A stretch of 64,000 nt of DNA from Escherichia phage NRG-P0074. The stretch's first letter is position 1, and each line of letters begins with the position of its first letter. The translations under genes and the position numbers were made by a program. The stretch is taken from the sequence record PQ480333.1; one strand, written 5' to 3'. This document shows, in pieces, positions 5,641-43,282 of the stretch. The notes under the pieces were generated by a model that searched no databases, was not told where the DNA came from, and saw only the letters and a list, made by a program, of their open reading frames with translations.

Positions 5641-7211
5641 TAAAAATCCTCTTGTTCTTGGTCGGGGTCTTGGAAACGAGCCTCTTTCGACTCTTCTTCA
5701 ATTTGCTTAGCCTCTTGTTCAATTTCCTCGTCAGACATCTGAAGAATATCTTTCATAGCTGTTCTGTGAGAAATATATTTACCAATAAATGGTTCGGCCA
5801 TCTGAAGCATATTAATGCGACGCTCCAGAATCTCAGCATCCTTTAATTCCGAGAAATAACTATCCCGATGAAATTTTATCTTAATATTATTTATTTCAAC
5901 ATTCCACTCATCTTCTGTAATAATTCCTTTAAGAATTAAATTAGTTTTAAGCGGGTCTAGGAATATCTCTTCAAATTTATGTTGCAGCTCACGAATAAAT
6001 TTACCAAATGACAATTCATCTCGTGTAATAGAAGTACCAGCATCAAACTGTATACCACCTTGGTCACTTGGAATACGGGTAATAGGAATACGTAAAGCCA
6101 TATAAAGCGCATTACGGAACCAACGTACATCTTCCATATTTCCGGTATTATCTGCACCTGGTAATGTATCAACTTCTGTTACTGCTTTACCGTCACGTCG
6201 TTGTAACCAATAATCCTCGGTCATCGACATAATATGCTGCTGGTTTTTAATCTTGCCTGTAGTAGCATCATATGCAATACGGTTTTTCATCGTATTCATA
6301 ACATGTTGCATATGTTCTGCTGCTTTTCTTGAAGGCATATTACCTGTATCAACGTACCATACACGACGATCAGGAGCACGAGTAATACGATAAATTACGA
6401 CGGCATCTTCAAGAAGTTTTAATTGGTTCGCTGGCTTAATAGCCCGATGCAAATAACCGATGATATTTTTACCACAACAATCAACTAAACCAGAATGGGC
6501 GTAAACAATCGCGGCTTTAGGGATTTTTATTTTTGTGCCCGCTTCATATATGCGACCATCACAAGCATAAGATTCGTGTGATGTGTCATAAATGAAATAT
6601 TCTTTATAACCCTTGACTATTTTAACGCCGGCTTCAGTGGTTGTAATAACTTCACGGACATATTGAACTTGACGTGGGTCTAAACGACGAAGCTCTTTAA
6701 TACCTTCTTTAGGACGTTTAGGGTCAATAATTTTATGGAAGAAAATTCGAGAATCTACATACCAACGCCTAAAATGGTCTGAACCTTTACGTTGGAAAGA
6801 TAAATGATTCAACACTTCGTTAAATTCATCCAACATCATTGATTTTATATTTGGACTAAATTTTGTGTTGTCTAAATTTATAGAAACGACTTCTGTATCA
6901 TCTTCATATACGATAGCATCGGAAACTATTTCAGAGACTGCATTATCCACTTCATAGTTCGTCATCAAATTTCGATACGTATCGATTAATTCACGGGTTG
7001 ATTTGAGCCCTGGTTCTTGACTACCGAACATTCTCTGAAACATAGCATTATATGTTTGCTGTGCTTCATTTTCAGATACTTCGTATTCTTTAGCACCGTC
7101 GTCTAATTTTGGTGCGGTGATAGATTCTAAATTTTCTTTTTCTTGGTCTTTGTAATCACGTTCGTCCATTTTTGCCCATGGAGCAAACAAACTTAAGATA
7201 TTAAATTTCAT
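5640..7211 (-). CDS. 20: Portal vertex protein gp20
   Basis: 523 aa; size, order and sequence character match T4 gp20. Confidence 0.9.
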
Positions 7212-7239
7212 TGTATTCTCCGAATGGGAATTATAGTTA

Positions 7240-7247
7240 TATTTATA
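7240..7247 (-). promoter_or_regulatory. Late promoter TATAAATA upstream of gene 20
   Basis: Plus strand tatttata about 30 bp upstream of the gp20 start at 7211. Confidence 0.5.
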
Positions 7248-7295
7248 TGGACTTCTCCGTCATCACGGGAAGCTGGGGATTTCTCCCCAACCGGA

Positions 7296-37175: not shown

Positions 37176-37408
37176 GTATAGCAATTTACATTAAATCAGA
37201 ATCATGTGATAGTTATCTGTACACATACGATAAAGATGTGTCAGAAGAAAAAATCAAAGACGATCTTAATATGGACCTTGATATGTTCTGTCCTATTGCA
37301 GATTACAAACTTGCGGTCTCTAATAGTGAAAGTCCATCTAAAGAAACGCGCATCGAAGAATTTATGTCCGAATTAATGGCCAAATCATGGGGCCGAGATG
37401 ATGAGTAA
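37172..37408 (+). CDS. Hypothetical protein (78 aa)
   Basis: ATGA overlap with preceding gene; ribosome-binding site AGGAAT. Confidence 0.4.
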   Translation: MSIAIYIKSESCDSYLYTYDKDVSEEKIKDDLNMDLDMFCPIADYKLAVSNSESPSKETRIEEFMSELMAKSWGRDDE

Positions 37409-37856
37409 GAAAAATAAAGTGAAAGAACTATCAGCCGGTATTATTTTCCTTACCGAAGATAAAGAATTATTCATGGGGCGTGTAACTGGTTCTCGTCCTA
37501 AAGGTTCTTTAGCTCATCGGTGGGATATTCCTAAAGGCCGTGTCGAACCTGGCGAATCTCCTATTGAAGCCGCTATTCGTGAATGCGAAGAAGAAACTGG
37601 GTTTACACAATATGACCCTGCCTTCCTGAAAGACCTAGGTGAACATCATTACTCAGACAATAAGAATATTCATCTGTTCTTATATACCATCCCTGTAGAG
37701 CACGAGCAATTCAGAAATAGTGTTTGTAATTCCTATCATACATTCCCAGACGGACGTCAGATTCCTGAATTTGATGCATTCGCTTTAATTAAACCTTCTC
37801 AATGGGAATATGTAATGGGCAAATCATTATATAAGGTGCTCACTACCCTCCTATAA
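37398..37856 (+). CDS. nudE: Nudix hydrolase
   Basis: Nudix box GRVEPGESPIEAAIRECEEETG; lies immediately upstream of lysozyme as in T4. Confidence 0.85.
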   Translation: MMSKKNKVKELSAGIIFLTEDKELFMGRVTGSRPKGSLAHRWDIPKGRVEPGESPIEAAIRECEEETGFTQYDPAFLKDLGEHHYSDNKNIHLFLYTIPVEHEQFRNSVCNSYHTFPDGRQIPEFDAFALIKPSQWEYVMGKSLYKVLTTLL

Positions 37857-37864
37857 GTAATAAA

Positions 37865-37888
37865 TACCTCCTATAAACGTGGGAGGTA
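37865..37888 (+). promoter_or_regulatory. Hairpin sequestering the ribosome-binding site of gene e
   Basis: tacctcc ... gggaggta inverted repeat; the right arm is the GGGAGG ribosome-binding site; the same arrangement is documented for T4 gene e. Confidence 0.6.
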
Positions 37889-37890
37889 TT

Positions 37891-38379
37891 ATGAATATAT
37901 TTGAAATGCTTCGTAATGACGAAGGTCTTAGACTGACTTTATACAAAGACACTGAAGGCTTTTGGACGATTGGCATAGGCCATTTAGTAACAAAGAACCC
38001 GTCTTTAGCCGTAGCTAAAGCTGAACTTGACAGAATGATCGGACGTAAATGCAACGGTACAATTACCCTTGATGAGGCTGAAAAGCTATTTAATGAAGAC
38101 GTTGATAAAGCCGTTCGCGGAATCTTGGGTAATGCTAAACTTAAACCGGTATATGATTCTTTAGATGCAGTTCGTCGGTGTGCATTGGTCAATATGGTCT
38201 TCCAAATGGGTGTAGCAGGAGTCGCCGGTTTTACTAATTCTCTTCGTATGCTTCAACAGAAACGTTGGGATGAAGCGGCAGTAAATCTAGCCCAATCTAA
38301 ATGGTATCGTCAGACACCTAATCGCGCGAAACGCGTAATCTCAACATTTAAAACAGGAACTTGGAAAGCGTATATATGA
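37891..38379 (+). CDS. e: Endolysin (T4 lysozyme)
   Basis: [32 protein letters not shown]... near-identical to T4 lysozyme. Confidence 0.97.
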
Positions 38380-38657
38380 AAACATATAGTGAATTTTTAT
38401 CAGAATCTATTCTTAACGAAGCTACTGACACATTTGCAACTAAGCTAGGTGCAGCTTTGGTTGAAGCTGAAAGTCTATTAGCACGTATTTCTGAACTTGC
38501 TAGTAAGATAGATACTCGCAAATTTGAACGTACCAGCGATATCGCTAAGCTTGAAGCTTTGTTACGTATGTGCGATAAACCGGAAGAAATCGCTAAGAAC
38601 GGCTCGTTAATGAAACAACGTCTTGAAAAATATATTTCAGGCGCTTCAGAAAAATAG
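38376..38657 (+). CDS. Internal protein (Ip) with capsid targeting sequence
   Basis: ATG overlaps the e stop (ATGA); N-terminus [16 protein letters not shown]... Confidence 0.6.
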
Positions 38658-38711
38658 TGTTTACTTCCTCCAAGGACTTTGATACTATACATTCATCAAC
38701 TACTTGGAGGA
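38658..38711 (+). promoter_or_regulatory. Early promoter with inverted repeat whose right arm contains the denV ribosome-binding site
   Basis: gtttac; arms ttcctccaag / cttggaggaa. Confidence 0.45.
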
Positions 38712-38715
38712 AATT

Positions 38716-39129
38716 ATGACTCGTATCAATTTAACACTTGTTTCTGAACTGTCCGACCAACATCTTATGGCTGAGTATCGTGAATTACCACGCGTATTTG
38801 GTGCAGTCCGTAAACATGTTCAAAACGGTAAACGTGTAAAGGATTTTAAAATCTCTCCAACATTTATCTTAGGCACAGGTCACGTAACATTCTTTTACGA
38901 CAAACTCGAATTTTTACGTTTACGTCAAATCGAGCTAATCGCTGAATGTTTGAAACGTGGTTTCAAAATCAAGGACACGACAGTCCAGGATATTTCCGAC
39001 ATCCCTGCCGAATTTCGTAATAATTATGTCCCGTCCGAAGCGTCCATTGCGATAAGTCAAGCACGCTTAGATGAAAAAATTGCTCAACGTCCGACTTGGT
39101 ACAAATACTATGGTAAATCAATTTACTAA
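38716..39129 (+). CDS. denV: Endonuclease V (pyrimidine dimer DNA glycosylase)
   Basis: [35 protein letters not shown]... near-identical to T4 DenV. Confidence 0.95.
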
Positions 39130-39135
39130 GGAAAA

Positions 39136-39396
39136 ATGAAAATGTATCAAGAATTTATCATTGAAGCAGATGCCAAAGGTCCTAAATTTAAAGTTAAAGC
39201 TTTCATTGGTGATGCGGAAGACTTTGGCTCATTAAAACGTAATGGGTATTCTTTCTTAGGTGGCGATGGTAAAGAAATCAACACCTATGCAAAACGTAGT
39301 GAAATTGCTTATGTTGTAGCAAGTCCTAAAGTAGATGTTGACGATATTGGATATGATTTTAACAACTTCGGAATTATTTCTGGCGGTAAAGCTTAA
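39136..39396 (+). CDS. Internal protein (Ip) with capsid targeting sequence
   Basis: N-terminus MKMYQEFIIEA; 86 aa. Confidence 0.6.
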   Translation: MKMYQEFIIEADAKGPKFKVKAFIGDAEDFGSLKRNGYSFLGGDGKEINTYAKRSEIAYVVASPKVDVDDIGYDFNNFGIISGGKA

Positions 39397-39399
39397 ATT

Positions 39400-39429
39400 G
39401 TTTACGCTTAAGTATTAATATGGTATAAT
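39400..39429 (+). promoter_or_regulatory. Early promoter (GTTTAC, TGgTATAAT)
   Basis: gtttac at 39400-39405, extended -10 tggtataat. Confidence 0.5.
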
Positions 39430-39459
39430 TACTCTATCAAAACAAACAAGGAAACAAAA

Positions 39460-39777
39460 ATGAAAACGTATAAAGAATTTATTGCAGAATCCGCCAACCA
39501 ACGCGTTGAAGGTGGTTATATTTGGATTGAACAAGTTGAGCCACCGAGCCGCACTTCTACAGGTAAATGGAAAATTACTGTTGACGGTCCTGGTGGTAAA
39601 CGTAGGACTCTTAAAGAAATTAATGGGTACTATGAAGAAGCTCTTTCGGATGCAGGAACTTACATGATGCAAATCATGATTAAAAACCCTGAAAACCGTT
39701 TTGCAGCTAAAGTCTTCCGTCGTATTGGTAATAAACTTTATGATGCATACTCTAAAAACTTCCCTAAAGAATAACAT
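39460..39777 (+). CDS. Internal protein (Ip) with capsid targeting sequence
   Basis: N-terminus MKTYKEFIAES; 105 aa. Confidence 0.65.
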
Positions 39778-39799
39778 AAATTAAAACAATAGGAACAAA

Positions 39800-40129
39800 A
39801 TGAAAACATATCAGGAGTTTATCACTGAAGTTACATTATCTGCGGAACAGAAAGCTGCTATCGAAGAAGGTAAAAATCCCAAAGTAACATACAAAGTAAA
39901 TAGTAAAGGCGTTTTTGATGGCTTGGTTCAAGACCCTGAATTGAAAAAAGCTCTTTCTAAAACTAATGCGTACTTTGCTCCTAAATTTAACACAGCCGGT
40001 GTACTTATTGGATTGGATGTATTCAACTCTAAAGGTGTTCTATCTAATGCCTTTGGTTATGCCGCTAACAAAATTACCAAAGCCGCATGGGAATCCAATA
40101 CCAAACAAGCTCAAAAGCCTAGAGTATAA
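39800..40129 (+). CDS. Internal protein (Ip) with capsid targeting sequence
   Basis: N-terminus MKTYQEFITEV; 109 aa. Confidence 0.65.
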   Translation: MKTYQEFITEVTLSAEQKAAIEEGKNPKVTYKVNSKGVFDGLVQDPELKKALSKTNAYFAPKFNTAGVLIGLDVFNSKGVLSNAFGYAANKITKAAWESNTKQAQKPRV

Positions 40130-40302
40130 TTCTTGCCTAATAAAGGGAAACGCAACCTCTCCTCATGAACGTCGAGTCCTCTGAGTGATGTACCTTTTCC
40201 AACCTGTAATAAGGTCGAGCGCAATGCGGTAATGGGTTTACATAGCGAGTCGAAGGACCTAACATGTGCCACGGAATGGCCCCAACCTAAAAGAGAAACT
40301 AA

Positions 40303-40842
40303 ATGAGAACATTTTTAACTGGACCTTATCTATCCCTGATGAATGCTTTTACACACCATTCTGATGCTAGAGTAGAAGAAATTTGTAAGAACGGTTATAT
40401 CCCACCGTTTGAAGACGTACTCAAGCAGTACTGTACACTTCGTTTAGACGGCGGCAGACAATCAGGTAAATCGACCGCAGTAACTAATTTTGCTGCTAAT
40501 TGGCTGTATGATGGTGGAACAGTTATTGTTCTTTCTAATACTTCAGCTTATGCTAAAATTTCTGCTGGCAACATTGAAAAAGAATTTTCTCGTTATTCTA
40601 GCGATGATATTCGATTCCGTTTATTTACTGATTCTGTTCGTAGTTTTATTGGCAATGAAGGTTCTAAATTCCGTGGATTAACGCTTTCTCGTATTCTGTA
40701 TATAATTGACGAGCCTATTAAAGCTCCTGATATGGATAAGATTTACAATGTCCACATTAAAACAGTACAGCACTGCTGCAAAAGCAAATATTGCATCGGC
40801 GGTAATGCTCGTCCTCAATTTTTTGTGATTGGAATGCAATGA
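40303..40842 (+). CDS. Small P-loop NTPase (179 aa)
   Basis: Walker A GGRQSGKST and Walker B-like ILYIIDEP; weak ribosome-binding site. Confidence 0.5.
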   Translation: MRTFLTGPYLSLMNAFTHHSDARVEEICKNGYIPPFEDVLKQYCTLRLDGGRQSGKSTAVTNFAANWLYDGGTVIVLSNTSAYAKISAGNIEKEFSRYSSDDIRFRLFTDSVRSFIGNEGSKFRGLTLSRILYIIDEPIKAPDMDKIYNVHIKTVQHCCKSKYCIGGNARPQFFVIGMQ

Positions 40843-41147
40843 TGACCACTATTGAAGTTTTTGAGTATTGTTATAACAGCCCAGTATGCAATAAAAGGGC
40901 TCTTGTAGAAAATTACGAGATTTACCATTTTAAACCTAAACGATATCGTTTGACTAAAGGTCCGTTCGCAGGGCAGCAGGTTCTTTGTACTGCTCCTAAT
41001 GCACGGTTGATGACTAGTATTCCGCATTTCAAAATGGAATTTATTGATGGGCCATTTAAGGGATTAATCACTCAAAGTTTAATGGCGTTTAATTCCGACC
41101 CATTTTTGATTAAAGAAAAATCTTGGATAAATTTATTTTCTAATTGA
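40839..41147 (+). CDS. Hypothetical protein (102 aa)
   Basis: ORF overlapping the previous stop. Confidence 0.4.
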   Translation: MMTTIEVFEYCYNSPVCNKRALVENYEIYHFKPKRYRLTKGPFAGQQVLCTAPNARLMTSIPHFKMEFIDGPFKGLITQSLMAFNSDPFLIKEKSWINLFSN

Positions 41148-41153
41148 GGTTAT

Positions 41154-41516
41154 ATGAAAGCATATCAAATTCTTGAAGGTGCACATAAAGGCACTATTTA
41201 TTTTGAAGACGGTACTCAAGCCCGGATTATTGTCTCTAAGACTTTTAAAGAAGACACTATTGTAGACCCGGAAATTTTCTACGGTTTGCATGCCCGTGAA
41301 ATTGAAATTGAACATCAACCTAAAGTTAAAATTGAAGGTGGTCAACATCTGAACGTTAACGTTCTGCGTCGCGAAACTCTGGAAGATGCAGTTAAACATC
41401 CGGAAAAATATCCGCAGCTGACCATCCGTGTATCTGGTTATGCAGTTCGCTTTAACTCTCTGACTCCGGAACAGCAGCGCGACGTTATCGCTCGTACCTT
41501 TACTGAGAGTCTATAA
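41154..41516 (+). CDS. Autonomous glycyl radical cofactor (GrcA/YfiD-like; T4 Y06I-like)
   Basis: C-terminus ...[60 protein letters not shown] carries the glycyl-radical motif RVSGYAV and matches the remembered E. coli GrcA C-terminus. Confidence 0.8.
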
Positions 41517-41740
41517 TGGCTAAATTGATTATAGAAGGGTCTGAAGATGTTTTAAAATGTTTTGCCGCCTGGTTTAGTTGCTCAGGCGAGCAATCATTCA
41601 TTGAAGCATTTAGAATGGGTGATATTACTGGAAACTATCCGACAACTGATATCACTGTACATGGATATGGTATTAATGAGCCTATCCAATTGGTCGAATA
41701 TGACCTTGCCACTGATGAGGAAATTCCTTATGTCGATTGA
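41516..41740 (+). CDS. Hypothetical protein (74 aa)
   Basis: ORF with overlapping start. Confidence 0.4.
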   Translation: MAKLIIEGSEDVLKCFAAWFSCSGEQSFIEAFRMGDITGNYPTTDITVHGYGINEPIQLVEYDLATDEEIPYVD

Positions 41741-41996
41741 AGACATCAAAGGCTACAAGCCACATACCGACGATAAAATCAGTAAAGTGAACGCTATTAA
41801 AGATGCAGAAGTCCGTCTTGGATTGATGTTTGATGCTCTGATTGAAGAAGCATATATCTTGAAAGAAAATGAAACAGAGCAACAAACCAAAGAAGATATG
41901 GATGCAGTGCAGGCTCTTAAGTATGCTAAGCAACATCTAAAAGAAGCCAGCATGTGGGCGTGTCGTGCAGTATTTCGACCTGAGGAAAAATACTAA
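41730..41996 (+). CDS. Hypothetical protein (88 aa)
   Basis: Start moved to ATG 41730 (ribosome-binding site GATGAGG) to avoid out-of-frame overlap in the 144-aa track ORF. Confidence 0.4.
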   Translation: MSIEDIKGYKPHTDDKISKVNAIKDAEVRLGLMFDALIEEAYILKENETEQQTKEDMDAVQALKYAKQHLKEASMWACRAVFRPEEKY

Positions 41997-42211
41997 TGGC
42001 TTCTACTATTACTGGGTTATTGGACTTCCAAGAAAAGGTCAACAAAATTTGTAGTGAATACTTAAAGTATCTTGAAGAAGACCTTGAAGATTGTAAGGAA
42101 GAAGGCGAAGAAGACTATGCTGACCAGCGTCGCCGCCAAATCGAAGAGATGAGGCATTTCGCCAATATGGTATCTAAAGAATCTTGGGCTTTAACTCCGT
42201 TTTATCAATAA
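41996..42211 (+). CDS. Hypothetical acidic protein (71 aa)
   Basis: ORF with TAATG overlap. Confidence 0.4.
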   Translation: MASTITGLLDFQEKVNKICSEYLKYLEEDLEDCKEEGEEDYADQRRRQIEEMRHFANMVSKESWALTPFYQ

Positions 42212-42215
42212 AGTA

Positions 42216-42265
42216 GTTTACTTCTCCTCTAGTTGTGTTACTATAGACCTGTCAACTAGAGGAGA
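42216..42265 (+). promoter_or_regulatory. PeSL-like early promoter upstream of regB (13-bp inverted repeat)
   Basis: gtttac; arms tctcctctagttg / caactagaggaga flank tgttactatagacctgt; right arm contains the ribosome-binding site. Confidence 0.55.
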
Positions 42266-42272
42266 AATCAAA

Positions 42273-42731
42273 ATGACTATCAATTCGGAAGTTTTTATCC
42301 GCCGTAATAAACTCCGTCGAATCTTTGAAACGGAGTTCCGCAAAATAAATGCCAGTATAAAAGACGCTGCAAAGTCTCTTGGACTACCAGGCTTTCATAT
42401 CAAGTATTCTCAACATCTCTTAGATCGTGCTATCCAGAGAGAAATAGATGAGAATTACGTTTTTGAATTATTTCGTAAAGTAAAAAATCATGTTAAAGAA
42501 GTTGCAGAATTTTTATCAATGCCGGCACGTCCAGATGTTGATGAAGATTTTGTCGAAGGTGTCGAATATCGCCCAGGACGTTTAGAAATAACTGATGGAA
42601 ATCTTTGGTTAGGACTTACAGTTTGTCGCGAAAATCCAGCATTCAAAATGAAGACTCTTCAATGCAGAATGGCTATTATTAACAGTAAACGACTACCAGG
42701 AAAAGCTTCTAAAGCAGTGATTAAAATCTAG
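42273..42731 (+). CDS. regB: RegB site-specific endoribonuclease
   Basis: MTINSEVFIRRNKLRRIFETEFRKIN...GRLEITDGNLWLG... matches remembered T4 RegB. Confidence 0.85.
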   Translation: MTINSEVFIRRNKLRRIFETEFRKINASIKDAAKSLGLPGFHIKYSQHLLDRAIQREIDENYVFELFRKVKNHVKEVAEFLSMPARPDVDEDFVEGVEYRPGRLEITDGNLWLGLTVCRENPAFKMKTLQCRMAIINSKRLPGKASKAVIKI

Positions 42732-42739
42732 AGGTAAAC

Positions 42740-43282
42740 ATGAGAAAAGCACTACTCGCTGGTCTATTTGCTCTTTCATTATCAGCACATAGCTCCGAGC
42801 ATACTTTTAGTAATGTCCAACTCGATAACTTGAATTATGCTTATCAGTTTGGGGAACAGTTTTCTAAGGACGGAAAATTTAAAACGCATGAAAATATGCA
42901 TAAGAAAGGACTTGGATACATAATGGCCGCAATACTATGGCAGGAATCATCTGCCGGTATTAATCTTAAAGATAAGAAAGGTCACCATGCGTATGGAATG
43001 TTCCAAAATTATCTACCAACAATGAGGGCAAGAATTAACCAGCTTGGTTATAATATGACTGATGCCCAAATTAAGAAAATGCTATCTAAGCGGTCTAATT
43101 CAACCAGATGGGCTTATATCGAATTTTCTTATTGGTTAAATATACATAACGGGGATATAAGAAAAGCTATATCCTCATATAATGCGGGATGGAAGACAAG
43201 TGCTGGAAGTAAATATGCTTCTGAAGTCCTAGAAAAGGCTAATTACCTTAAATCAAATAAACTACTGGAAATAAAAGAATGA
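42740..43282 (+). CDS. Secreted/periplasmic protein (180 aa; possibly T4 vs.1-like)
   Basis: N-terminal signal peptide MRKALLAGLFALSLSAHS; position after regB. Confidence 0.5.
   Translation: MRKALLAGLFALSLSAHSSEHTFSNVQLDNLNYAYQFGEQFSKDGKFKTHENMHKKGLGYIMAAILWQESSAGINLKDKKGHHAYGMFQNYLPTMRARINQLGYNMTDAQIKKMLSKRSNSTRWAYIEFSYWLNIHNGDIRKAISSYNAGWKTSAGSKYASEVLEKANYLKSNKLLEIKE

Follow-up and report, generated by a model that had tools for sequence, protein, structure and literature searches.

GOLLD and ROOL are structured RNAs of phages and prophages that have no known function and are often found near tRNA genes. The roles of non-coding RNAs (ncRNAs) in lytic phages are largely unexplored according to a 2024 review (PMC10884466). 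T4 rnaC and rnaD are late RNAs of unknown function (PMC9697503), and Campylobacter phage NCTC12673 has an abundant ncRNA of 158 nt (PMC6024767). Here we analyzed a stretch of 64,000 nt of Escherichia phage NRG-P0074 (PQ480333.1; the whole stretch is called the window), and in it the tract between a group of internal-protein (ip)-like genes and the gene vs.8. The element at positions 40142-40283 of this tract (+ strand, ~145 nt) is best explained as a whole, with a probability of roughly 0.6, as a conserved pseudoknotted RNA and candidate new phage RNA family, whose core would most likely be bound by a protein or by some cellular machinery. Full-text literature searches, including searches by sequence, returned no description of the element, although it may be contained without a name in large candidate lists.

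The window belongs to an RB69-like T-even phage. The region considered here matches Escherichia phage BEU50 at 100% identity, and RB69 and further Mosigvirus genomes at 96-99%.

Conservation and predicted fold of the element upstream of vs.8

A BLAST search with the tract alone returned 976 phage records across many T-even genera, and the tract could be aligned over Mosigvirus, Tequatrovirus, Gaprivervirus, Gelderlandvirus and Winklervirus as well as T4-like phages of Klebsiella. The identity of the element was 85.5% in Klebsiella phages, 76.9% in Gelderlandvirus and 80.1% in Gaprivervirus, while the adjacent vs.8 gene reached 57.7, 63.6, and 60.4%, respectively, at the nucleotide level and 33-46% at the amino acid level. 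Compared with T4 the relation was reversed (element 66%, vs.8 85% identical); the T4 version is "short" and its 5' domain is of another kind. The type of RNA therefore does not follow the gene tree, which implies an exchange of modules.

The tract fills the gap between the third ip-like gene, which stops at 40129, and the ATG of vs.8 (40303). A preliminary description of this DNA had stated that it contains no open reading frame (ORF) of 60 codons or more, which is correct; an out-of-frame ORF of 72 aa (39966-40184) overlaps its first part by 52 nt, and the minus strand has two ORFs there (42 and 53 aa). The same description had called the tract much more GC-rich than its surroundings, and this holds only moderately. 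The GC content is 47.1% (50.7% at 40142-40283) against a window mean of 37.8% (z = 2.3, top 1.65% of 170-nt windows), a value reached at 19 other sites of the window.

Single-nucleotide insertions and deletions (indels) separate even near-identical relatives. Where the window reads GCGCAA-UGCGG, phage Av-05, which is ~97-98% identical, reads GCCCAAGUGCGG, and this 1-nt indel would put an ORF on either strand out of frame. In 36 of the 38 distinct sequences the vs.8 frame does not stay open through the element. Upstream of the conserved vs.8 start it is open across the element in T4 only (51-54 codons); in the window and many other sequences a stop is reached within 0-4 codons, and in T4 relatives with an 89%-identical Vs.8 after 3 codons.

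Reading frames have nevertheless been annotated over the element. In the T4 reference NC_000866 (our locus L035, 1754-2413) Vs.8 is given 219 aa, with a 40-codon N-terminal extension over the element. A Klebsiella vs.8-like coding sequence (L004, 2147-2728), beginning MDSLHAPRNGP, starts within its last two helices (P5/P6, see below), and hypothetical proteins on the minus strand are annotated over it in phages a20 and K65 (L001, 3512-3712; L004, 1485-1634). None of these frames is kept in relatives. Since T4 alone keeps the vs.8 frame open through the element, the 219-aa Vs.8 is probably over-extended and a likely annotation artefact; the Klebsiella coding sequence and the minus-strand ORFs of a20 and K65 are most likely artefacts as well. 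It is because of its annotation as coding sequence that the element would have gone unnoticed in T4. A conserved pseudoknotted RNA under a mis-annotated vs.8 start would, if true, correct the T4 reference annotation, although the genomes of T4 and RB69 count among those studied most thoroughly.

The predicted fold of the element consists of the following parts, with paired alignment columns given where they vary:

40142-40197, + strand: 5' domain (P1/P2)
40142-40146 (AAAGG) with 40193-40197 (CCUUU), + strand: P1; pair 9:56 occurs as GC, CG, and AU
40147-40154, + strand: J1/2, enclosed by P1
40155-40165 with 40182-40191, + strand: P2, a long helix with an apical hairpin at 40167-40178; pair 18:54 is CG 11 times and AU 8 times
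40151-40153 (CGC, in J1/2) with 40245-40247 (GCG, in the P5 loop), + strand: pseudoknot
40193-40241, + strand: core three-way junction; 66.5 bits, E = 3e-18 with the core model R1 (see below), its sole match in the window
40198-40201 with 40233-40236, + strand: P3, with a bulged G; pair 63:99 is CG or GC, pair 64:97 is UG, AU, UA, or CG
40202-40205 (ACCU) with 40212-40215 (AGGU), + strand: P3a, with the GNRA-like hexaloop GUAAUA at 40206-40211; pair 65:78 is AU or GC
40216-40218 (CGA) and 40228-40232 (GGUAA), + strand: junction strands, invariant as C(G)A and GGUAA
40219-40221 with 40225-40227, + strand: P4
40240-40243 (ACAU) with 40264-40267 (AUGU), + strand: P5, forming the part 40240-40267 of the element; 97% of cells paired
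40268-40271 (GCCA) with 40277-40280 (UGGC), + strand: P6, with the loop CGGAA (GGA at 40273-40275), then CCC; 98.7% of cells paired

RNAalifold, given 19 "long-type" sequences in a MAFFT alignment made without structure, recovered P2 and the pseudoknot pairs unaided. On this unfitted alignment 93.5% of the cells of the full model were paired, compared to 86.4% in shuffled alignments and 24-45% when the partners were slid by 1-3 columns. Both sides had changed in 33 cells (10.8 in the control), and the covariation of 0.165 (control 0.053) was reached by none of 500 shuffles. The pseudoknot columns 15:111 are CG in 12 sequences, GC in 3, AU in 3, and UG in 1, and columns 16:110 are GC in 10 and CG in 6. 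Three relatives show a matching loss of one C:G pair in P2 (CUCA/UGAGU to CU-A/U-AG), and a U:A pair of P5 becomes A:U in L087 and L033. P1, P2, P3, P3a, and the pseudoknot all have backing from compensatory changes in these aligned sequences. The RNA strand is the + strand, since the G-U pairs seen in P3 and P2b would read as A-C in a transcript of the opposite strand. The pairing of the J1/2 loop with the P5 loop would tie the element into one compact fold.

P6 is nearly invariant and shows no covariation; with it the element ends (40283) about 20 nt upstream of the vs.8 ATG. The large P5 loop holds, besides the GCG of the pseudoknot, a conserved A(A/U)GGA(C/U), of which GGA at 40255-40257 is invariant. 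The 3' part differs in Winklervirus CHI14, where P5 and P6 are replaced by hairpins with CAGGAUG and CAAGGAUG in their loops (by eye, from the alignment). A further pairing, GGAC of the P5 loop with GUCC of P2b, was rejected, since GUCC changes to UUCC without compensation.

The preliminary description had named a small RNA as one possible product of the tract. This proposal has strong comparative support: across genera the tract is better conserved than the gene next to it, indels break the reading frames, and base pairs covary, including those of the pseudoknot. The element at 40142-40283 is very probably a functional structured RNA.

The core module in unrelated phages

Sequences that match the central 50 nt of the element alone came from pattern scans of viral contigs and a subsequent nhmmer search. 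A covariance model of this core (R1; 50 positions, 11 pairs) was run over 822 kb of collected loci. Its scores were bimodal, with 64 matches at 37.7-75.9 bits and chance matches found by pattern only at 26.7 bits or less. Among 48 distinct core sequences 88.1% of the cells were paired (75.0% shuffled, 27-41% in slid controls), double changes were found in 71 cells compared to 32, and the covariation was 0.369 compared to 0.118, again not reached in any of 500 shuffles. Positions of P3 take CG, GC, AU, and UA, the P4 pairs GC..GC become GU..AC in several lineages, and the hexaloop always starts with a GNRA sequence (GUAA, GUGA, or GCAA). The window shows the whole pattern proposed for the family, namely P3 with a bulged purine, the hairpin NCCUG-GNRANA-AGGN', C(N)A, a short GY...RC hairpin and GGUAA, and all pairs form.

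Copies found by BLAST in a Vibrio phage, in the 45-kb coliphage Ivi and in a Vequintavirus were also recovered by R1. The core is present in rV5-like Vequintavirinae, and the copy of rV5 itself lies in an unannotated gap ~460 nt upstream of a tRNA array. The N4-like Klebsiella phage KpCHEMY26 and similar contigs have it in a 1-kb ORF-free stretch adjoining the tRNA array, and in a viral contig of 359 kb it starts ~40 nt past a tRNA-Glu gene. Further members were found in several other uncultured phages and on a Pseudomonas megaplasmid. Outside the T-evens, 7 of the 12 lineages have tRNA genes on the same strand at a distance of no more than ~1.2 kb. What stands downstream of the copies varies (vs.8, an ip gene, tRNAs, or nothing), and within the loci searched no homologue of Vs.8 or of other proteins encoded next to it in the window was found near the non-T-even copies.

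Some T-even relatives have two copies, and one Klebsiella copy precedes an ip gene. Tandem copies were seen in two T4-like contigs (L023, 5252-5092, and L058, 9019-9180), one of 177.6 kb and one of 172.3 kb; in both, the first copy has a long 5' domain and a different 3' hairpin, and the second a minimal 5' domain with the full P5/P6 tail.

Outside the T-evens a 5' hairpin loop appears complementary to a segment just 3' of the junction, as CUCCGG/CCGGAG in Ivi, CGGA/UCCG in the group of contig L044 and CCAG/CUGG in rV5 (by eye), a pairing reminiscent of the T-even pseudoknot. The Ivi copy occupies an ORF-free gap of 337 nt with a hairpin-plus-U-run on either side, likewise noted by eye; a terminator scan did not flag these hairpins, and promoter-like sites were found around the copy. 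Directly 3' of it (L136, 1553-1655) stand a promoter-like TTGACA-17-GATACT, a C/U-rich stretch with AUCACCUCCU and a strong hairpin-plus-U-run, and this segment may be a second small RNA. We take AUCACCUCCU to be identical to the anti-Shine-Dalgarno end of 16S rRNA.

Two other loci showed additional features beside the core. In an uncultured phage contig (L045, 583-618) an abiF RNA motif (RF03085, 38.9 bits, above the gathering score) lies ~60 nt downstream of the copy, which suggests that small RNAs with a possible link to host defence are clustered here. The N4-like contig L044 contains on its minus strand (5658-5626) a frame resembling the tag of transfer-messenger RNA (tmRNA), ANEEVYLAVA (codons GCA AAC GAA GAA ...) followed by a stop, in a 0.9-kb non-coding region upstream of the tRNAs and ~230 nt upstream of the motif copy. 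As a tmRNA this lead was rejected, since the two Rfam tmRNA models gave 21.7 and 8.4 bits at a threshold of 47 and ARAGORN returned nothing; the frame may belong to a divergent phage tmRNA-like RNA.

A pattern scan of bacteria and archaea, with one genome for each of 185,579 species, gave 30 matches, about the number expected by chance according to our own estimate. All but the Pseudomonas megaplasmid (29 of 30) lacked P3 and P4 on inspection, a judgement made without R1 scores, and BLAST against 5,426 complete Escherichia coli genomes gave no match. As far as these sequence searches reach, the core module is confined to phages, and nothing convincing was seen in bacterial genomes. An E. coli 'plasmid' of 137.5 kb with an rV5-type motif (CP057073.1) is probably an rV5-like phage genome, and records named 'Campylobacter phage A112b' (L137, MG065682.1; UNVERIFIED) are classified as Vequintavirus, i.e., rV5-like. 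As the module recurs in unrelated phages, mostly beside tRNA genes and without bacterial copies, it probably serves a general phage need, which might be RNA processing, translation takeover, or counter-defence.

Explanations for the element and its gene neighbourhood

The RNA would be part of the ip-to-vs.8 transcription unit and would lie directly before the weakly initiated vs.8. The core is also found in tRNA arrays, in ORF-free gaps and before a Klebsiella ip gene, which makes an autonomous folded unit more likely than a switch specific for vs.8. Such a unit would be bound by a protein or by cellular machinery, as part of a ribonucleoprotein, as a decoy, or as a scaffold; that the RNA binds a protein and acts in trans is a tentative part of this proposal. 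In T-evens the GGA hairpins near the vs.8 start may in addition couple the RNA to translation or to a protein that binds GGA, for instance CsrA, and any link to CsrA itself is improbable. A bolder version, which we regard as unlikely, would make the element the first of a functional class of phage RNAs with their own biochemical activity, either a self-processing ribozyme or a decoy or inhibitor of host defence directed at RNA or translation. At least four unrelated virulent lineages would then keep the RNA in 'RNA islands' beside tRNAs, and T-evens would keep it in the ip/Acb2 neighbourhood, which is rich in anti-defence genes.

Several observations weigh against a conserved pseudoknotted RNA with an autonomous core. 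Folded as a single sequence, the tract is no stabler in its minimum-free-energy structure than shuffled sequences (z = +1.98 on the + strand, +0.92 on the - strand), and the case therefore rests on the comparative data. There, P4, P5, and P6 are nearly invariant among T-evens and hence offer little covariation, and RNAalifold also gives a GUAA/UUAC helix that competes with P3. The aligned sequences are related, so that phylogeny alone can exceed a shuffle control, though the slide control argues otherwise. An automated best-helix test for a pseudoknot across families did no better than shuffles, and that pairing was seen by eye only. GGA triplets, at two or three per 150 nt, are close to their chance frequency. 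Finally, nearly all T-evens have the element directly before vs.8, which suits an action in cis as well as in trans.

This position leads to the strongest competitor, a cis-regulatory leader of vs.8 which, like a riboswitch or operated by a protein, would sense a ligand or protein and control initiation at the weak ribosome-binding site or the stability of the mRNA. Two further features of the + strand flank the element:

40291-40305, + strand: start region of vs.8, with AAGAGA at 40291-40296, an in-frame stop TAA at 40300-40302 and the conserved ATG at 40303, where the protein would open with MRTFLTG
40125-40130, + strand: candidate promoter with the perfect -10 hexamer TATAAT, overlapping the ip stop, with the MotA-box-like AAGCTCA 11 nt upstream

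That vs.8 has a poor ribosome-binding site, as stated previously, was borne out, and yet the same weak motif is kept in relatives, which would suit a leader that controls it. So would the place of the element, which adjoins the 5' side of vs.8 in nearly all T-even genomes examined, P6 ending ~20 nt before the ATG, and the second copy of Klebsiella phage K65, which would open an early vs.8 transcript with a promoter (GTTTAC...TAGTAT) just upstream. A three-way junction with invariant junction nucleotides is moreover typical of aptamers. Against a leader, rV5-like, N4-like, and other phages have the core within tRNA arrays and in ORF-free gaps, with no Vs.8 homologue in the loci searched, and the one Klebsiella copy precedes an ip gene instead. 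No riboswitch family matched and no conserved pairing sequesters the Shine-Dalgarno sequence; a candidate for such a pairing, CCUCUCC, was rejected, as this stretch is the 5' strand of P2 and the short type of T4 lacks it, having no CUCUC. On balance a cis-acting leader appears unlikely.

As to transcription, the TATAAT at 40125-40130 could, speculatively, belong to a middle promoter with an RNA start near 40137. It is seen at the ip stop in the RB69-like group only and was not flagged by a generic sigma-70 scan; promoter and terminator scans were uninformative for the tract.

Less probable still is a small self-cleaving ribozyme or processing module that would cut polycistronic transcripts such as tRNA precursors or the ip/vs.8 mRNA. 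The compact form of the element, its three-way junction with pseudoknot and its ~16 invariant unpaired nucleotides would fit, as would its restriction to phages and its frequent place in tRNA precursor regions. The architecture is, however, the sole basis of this idea: a conserved candidate cleavage dinucleotide was not found, Rfam models of small self-cleaving ribozymes (hammerhead, twister, twister-sister, pistol, hatchet, HDV) gave no match at E up to 10, and on reading the sequence their core motifs, such as CUGANGA/GAAA of the hammerhead, were missing.

The remaining explanations have very little probability. One would see in the tract an element of the DNA, i.e., a promoter, a protein-binding site, or a recombination hotspot, and could point to the promoter-like TTTACA-17-TAACAT inside the element (40237-40265) and to TATAAT at the 5' edge of the tract. 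The internal hexamers are not conserved (T4 has GUAAAU in place of GUUUAC), and compensatory and G-U changes that follow the helices are strand-specific, which is unexpected for sites in duplex DNA. A coding function, as N-terminal extension of Vs.8 in T4 or as small minus-strand ORFs, has the annotations of T4, a20, and K65 in its favour and, against it, the frame open in T4 alone, the Av-05 indel and substitutions that track base-pairing and not codon position.

Equally improbable is an accessory island gained by horizontal transfer, in which the tract would be a foreign remnant; the preliminary description had favoured such an acquisition and named a remnant as one possibility for the tract. 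The genes of the region are:

37398-37856, + strand: nudE
37879-38379, + strand: e
38361-38657, + strand: ip-like gene, between e and denV
38704-39129, + strand: denV
39136-39396, 39460-39774, and 39800-40129, + strand: three ip-like genes 3' of denV
40303-42211, + strand: conserved T-even block from vs.8 to the ORF117c homologue, given as context outside the RNA element
40303-40842, + strand: vs.8; Walker A motif GGRQSGKST (from translation), PHROG 1488
40839-41147, + strand: vs.7
41154-41516, + strand: vs.6, GrcA-like; Pfam Gly_radical, E = 2e-18
41516-41740, + strand: vs.5
about 41730-41996, + strand: vs.4; Pfam Acb2/Tad1 (PF24729), E = 1e-17
41996-42211, + strand: homologue of RB69 ORF117c
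42273-42731, + strand: regB

The gene calls of the preliminary description were correct, the P-loop NTPase at 40303-40842 being Vs.8 (its match to Pfam AAA_14 is sub-threshold) and the GrcA-like gene at 41154-41516 vs.6. Its view that denV and regB are near neighbours in T4 was mistaken, as both a mutant T4 record and the reference NC_000866 have the order denV-vs.8-vs.7-vs.6-vs.5-vs.4-vs.3-regB. The order from denV to regB is the same in RB69 and is kept, with some losses, in Gaprivervirus VR26, Gelderlandvirus CGG4-1, and Winklervirus CHI14. What had been described as a horizontally acquired accessory insertion of ~3 kb is thus the vs.8-vs.3 cluster, located at the same site in T4, in RB69, and largely in the other T-even genera; the same block at the same site in T4 is the first half of what that description had itself named as speaking against an insertion. 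The GC content of the block genes (34.6-41.3%, window 37.8%) is ordinary, and together with the synteny in T4 and RB69 this argues that the block is not an insertion.

In favour of an island, the ip-denV region is rearranged relative to T4, with ip genes on both sides of denV, and the 5' RNA domain is unlike that of T4 despite a 90%-identical Vs.8, which indicates recombination; a core common to unrelated phage families moreover implies an old horizontal spread. On the other side, the tract is under purifying selection for structure and shows no decay, and it has no donor match in bacterial or E. coli genomes, so that a foreign remnant does not describe it.

The four ip-like genes (38361-38657, 39136-39396, 39460-39774, and 39800-40129) have common N-termini of the type MK(T/M)Y(Q/K)EFI. 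They stand on both sides of denV in the window, while T4 ipIII and ipII are both upstream of denV, and this placement is a lineage-specific rearrangement common to RB69. By its Pfam match vs.4 (41730-41996) is an anti-CBASS sponge of the Acb2/Tad1 family, and the block called accessory therefore holds a known anti-defence gene. Before regB, a perfect 14-bp inverted repeat (TTCTCCTCTAGTTG ... CAACTAGAGGAGAA, 42221-42266) spans the early-type regB promoter GTTTAC ... TACTAT and includes the regB Shine-Dalgarno sequence GAGGAG. In read-through transcripts the repeat would sequester this sequence, including the GGAG that RegB cleaves.

Comparison with described RNA families

The preliminary description had recommended a covariance-model scan of the tract for known families, and this returned no Rfam 15 match. 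With all 4227 models, positions 39000-43000 of the window gave only a spurious match to a human long non-coding RNA at E up to 10. In the non-T-even loci, the Rfam gathering threshold was passed by tRNAs, one group I intron and one abiF motif elsewhere, none of them on the core, and E-value scans around the motif in other loci gave nothing. ARAGORN predicted neither a tRNA nor a tmRNA anywhere in the window, and gave none at the position of the motif in the other loci.

The abundant ncRNA of phage NCTC12673 (L134, 1611-1768; record positions 7110-7267) has a similar hairpin, GACCU-AAAAUA-AGGUC. As an expressed homologue of the element it was rejected, since R1 gave 7.4 bits at another place in the locus and the downstream gene is not a homologue of vs.8.

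The hexaloop GUAAUA of P3a is, as we take it, identical to the H44 hexaloop of 23S rRNA (1093-1098) in the GTPase-associated centre, which serves as a lead only; H42-H43-H44 have another order of helices around the junction, and there is no wider similarity.

CsrB, CsrC, and RsmZ, and likewise leaders controlled by CsrA, resemble the element in carrying GGA in short hairpin loops before a start codon (P6, GCCA-NGGAA-UGGC; P5, A(U/A)GGAY). The GGA loops of the element (40255-40257 and 40273-40275) are 18-19 nt apart, and these loops as well as CAGGAUG and CAAGGAUG of Winklervirus resemble the SELEX consensus of CsrA, RUACARGGAUGU, and its optimal spacing of two sites. The element differs in having two conserved sites compared to 7-22 in the sponge RNAs; the number of GGA is near chance, and no Csr/Rsm model matched. 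Four host ncRNAs, CsrB among them, stay unexpectedly stable in T4 infection (PMC9697503).

With riboswitch aptamers (purine, TPP, c-di-GMP-I) the element shares a three-way junction, invariant junction nucleotides, a GNRA-type loop, long-range pairing and, in T-evens, a place in the 5' untranslated region. It differs from them by the lack of a consistent class of downstream genes, of a conserved expression platform and of a model match. GOLLD and ROOL are much longer, 600-800 nt compared to 50-150 nt for the element, and gave no Rfam match in the loci tested, either at the gathering threshold or at E up to 10.

T4 rnaC and rnaD are similar in being small structured T-even RNAs tied to a tRNA cluster, and non-T-even copies of the core also lie in tRNA clusters. 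The T-even element, in contrast, stands between denV/ip and vs.8, and the window has no tRNA cluster; a direct relation was rejected, as R1 did not match in the T4 region (L101) and the sequences of rnaC and rnaD lack the junction. Judged by these comparisons, the element is a candidate RNA family without a relative among the described ones, the novelty being that of the family and not of a demonstrated mechanism. If true, it would add an RNA class to the short list of structured RNAs in virulent phages, with T4 and RB69 on E. coli as tractable systems.

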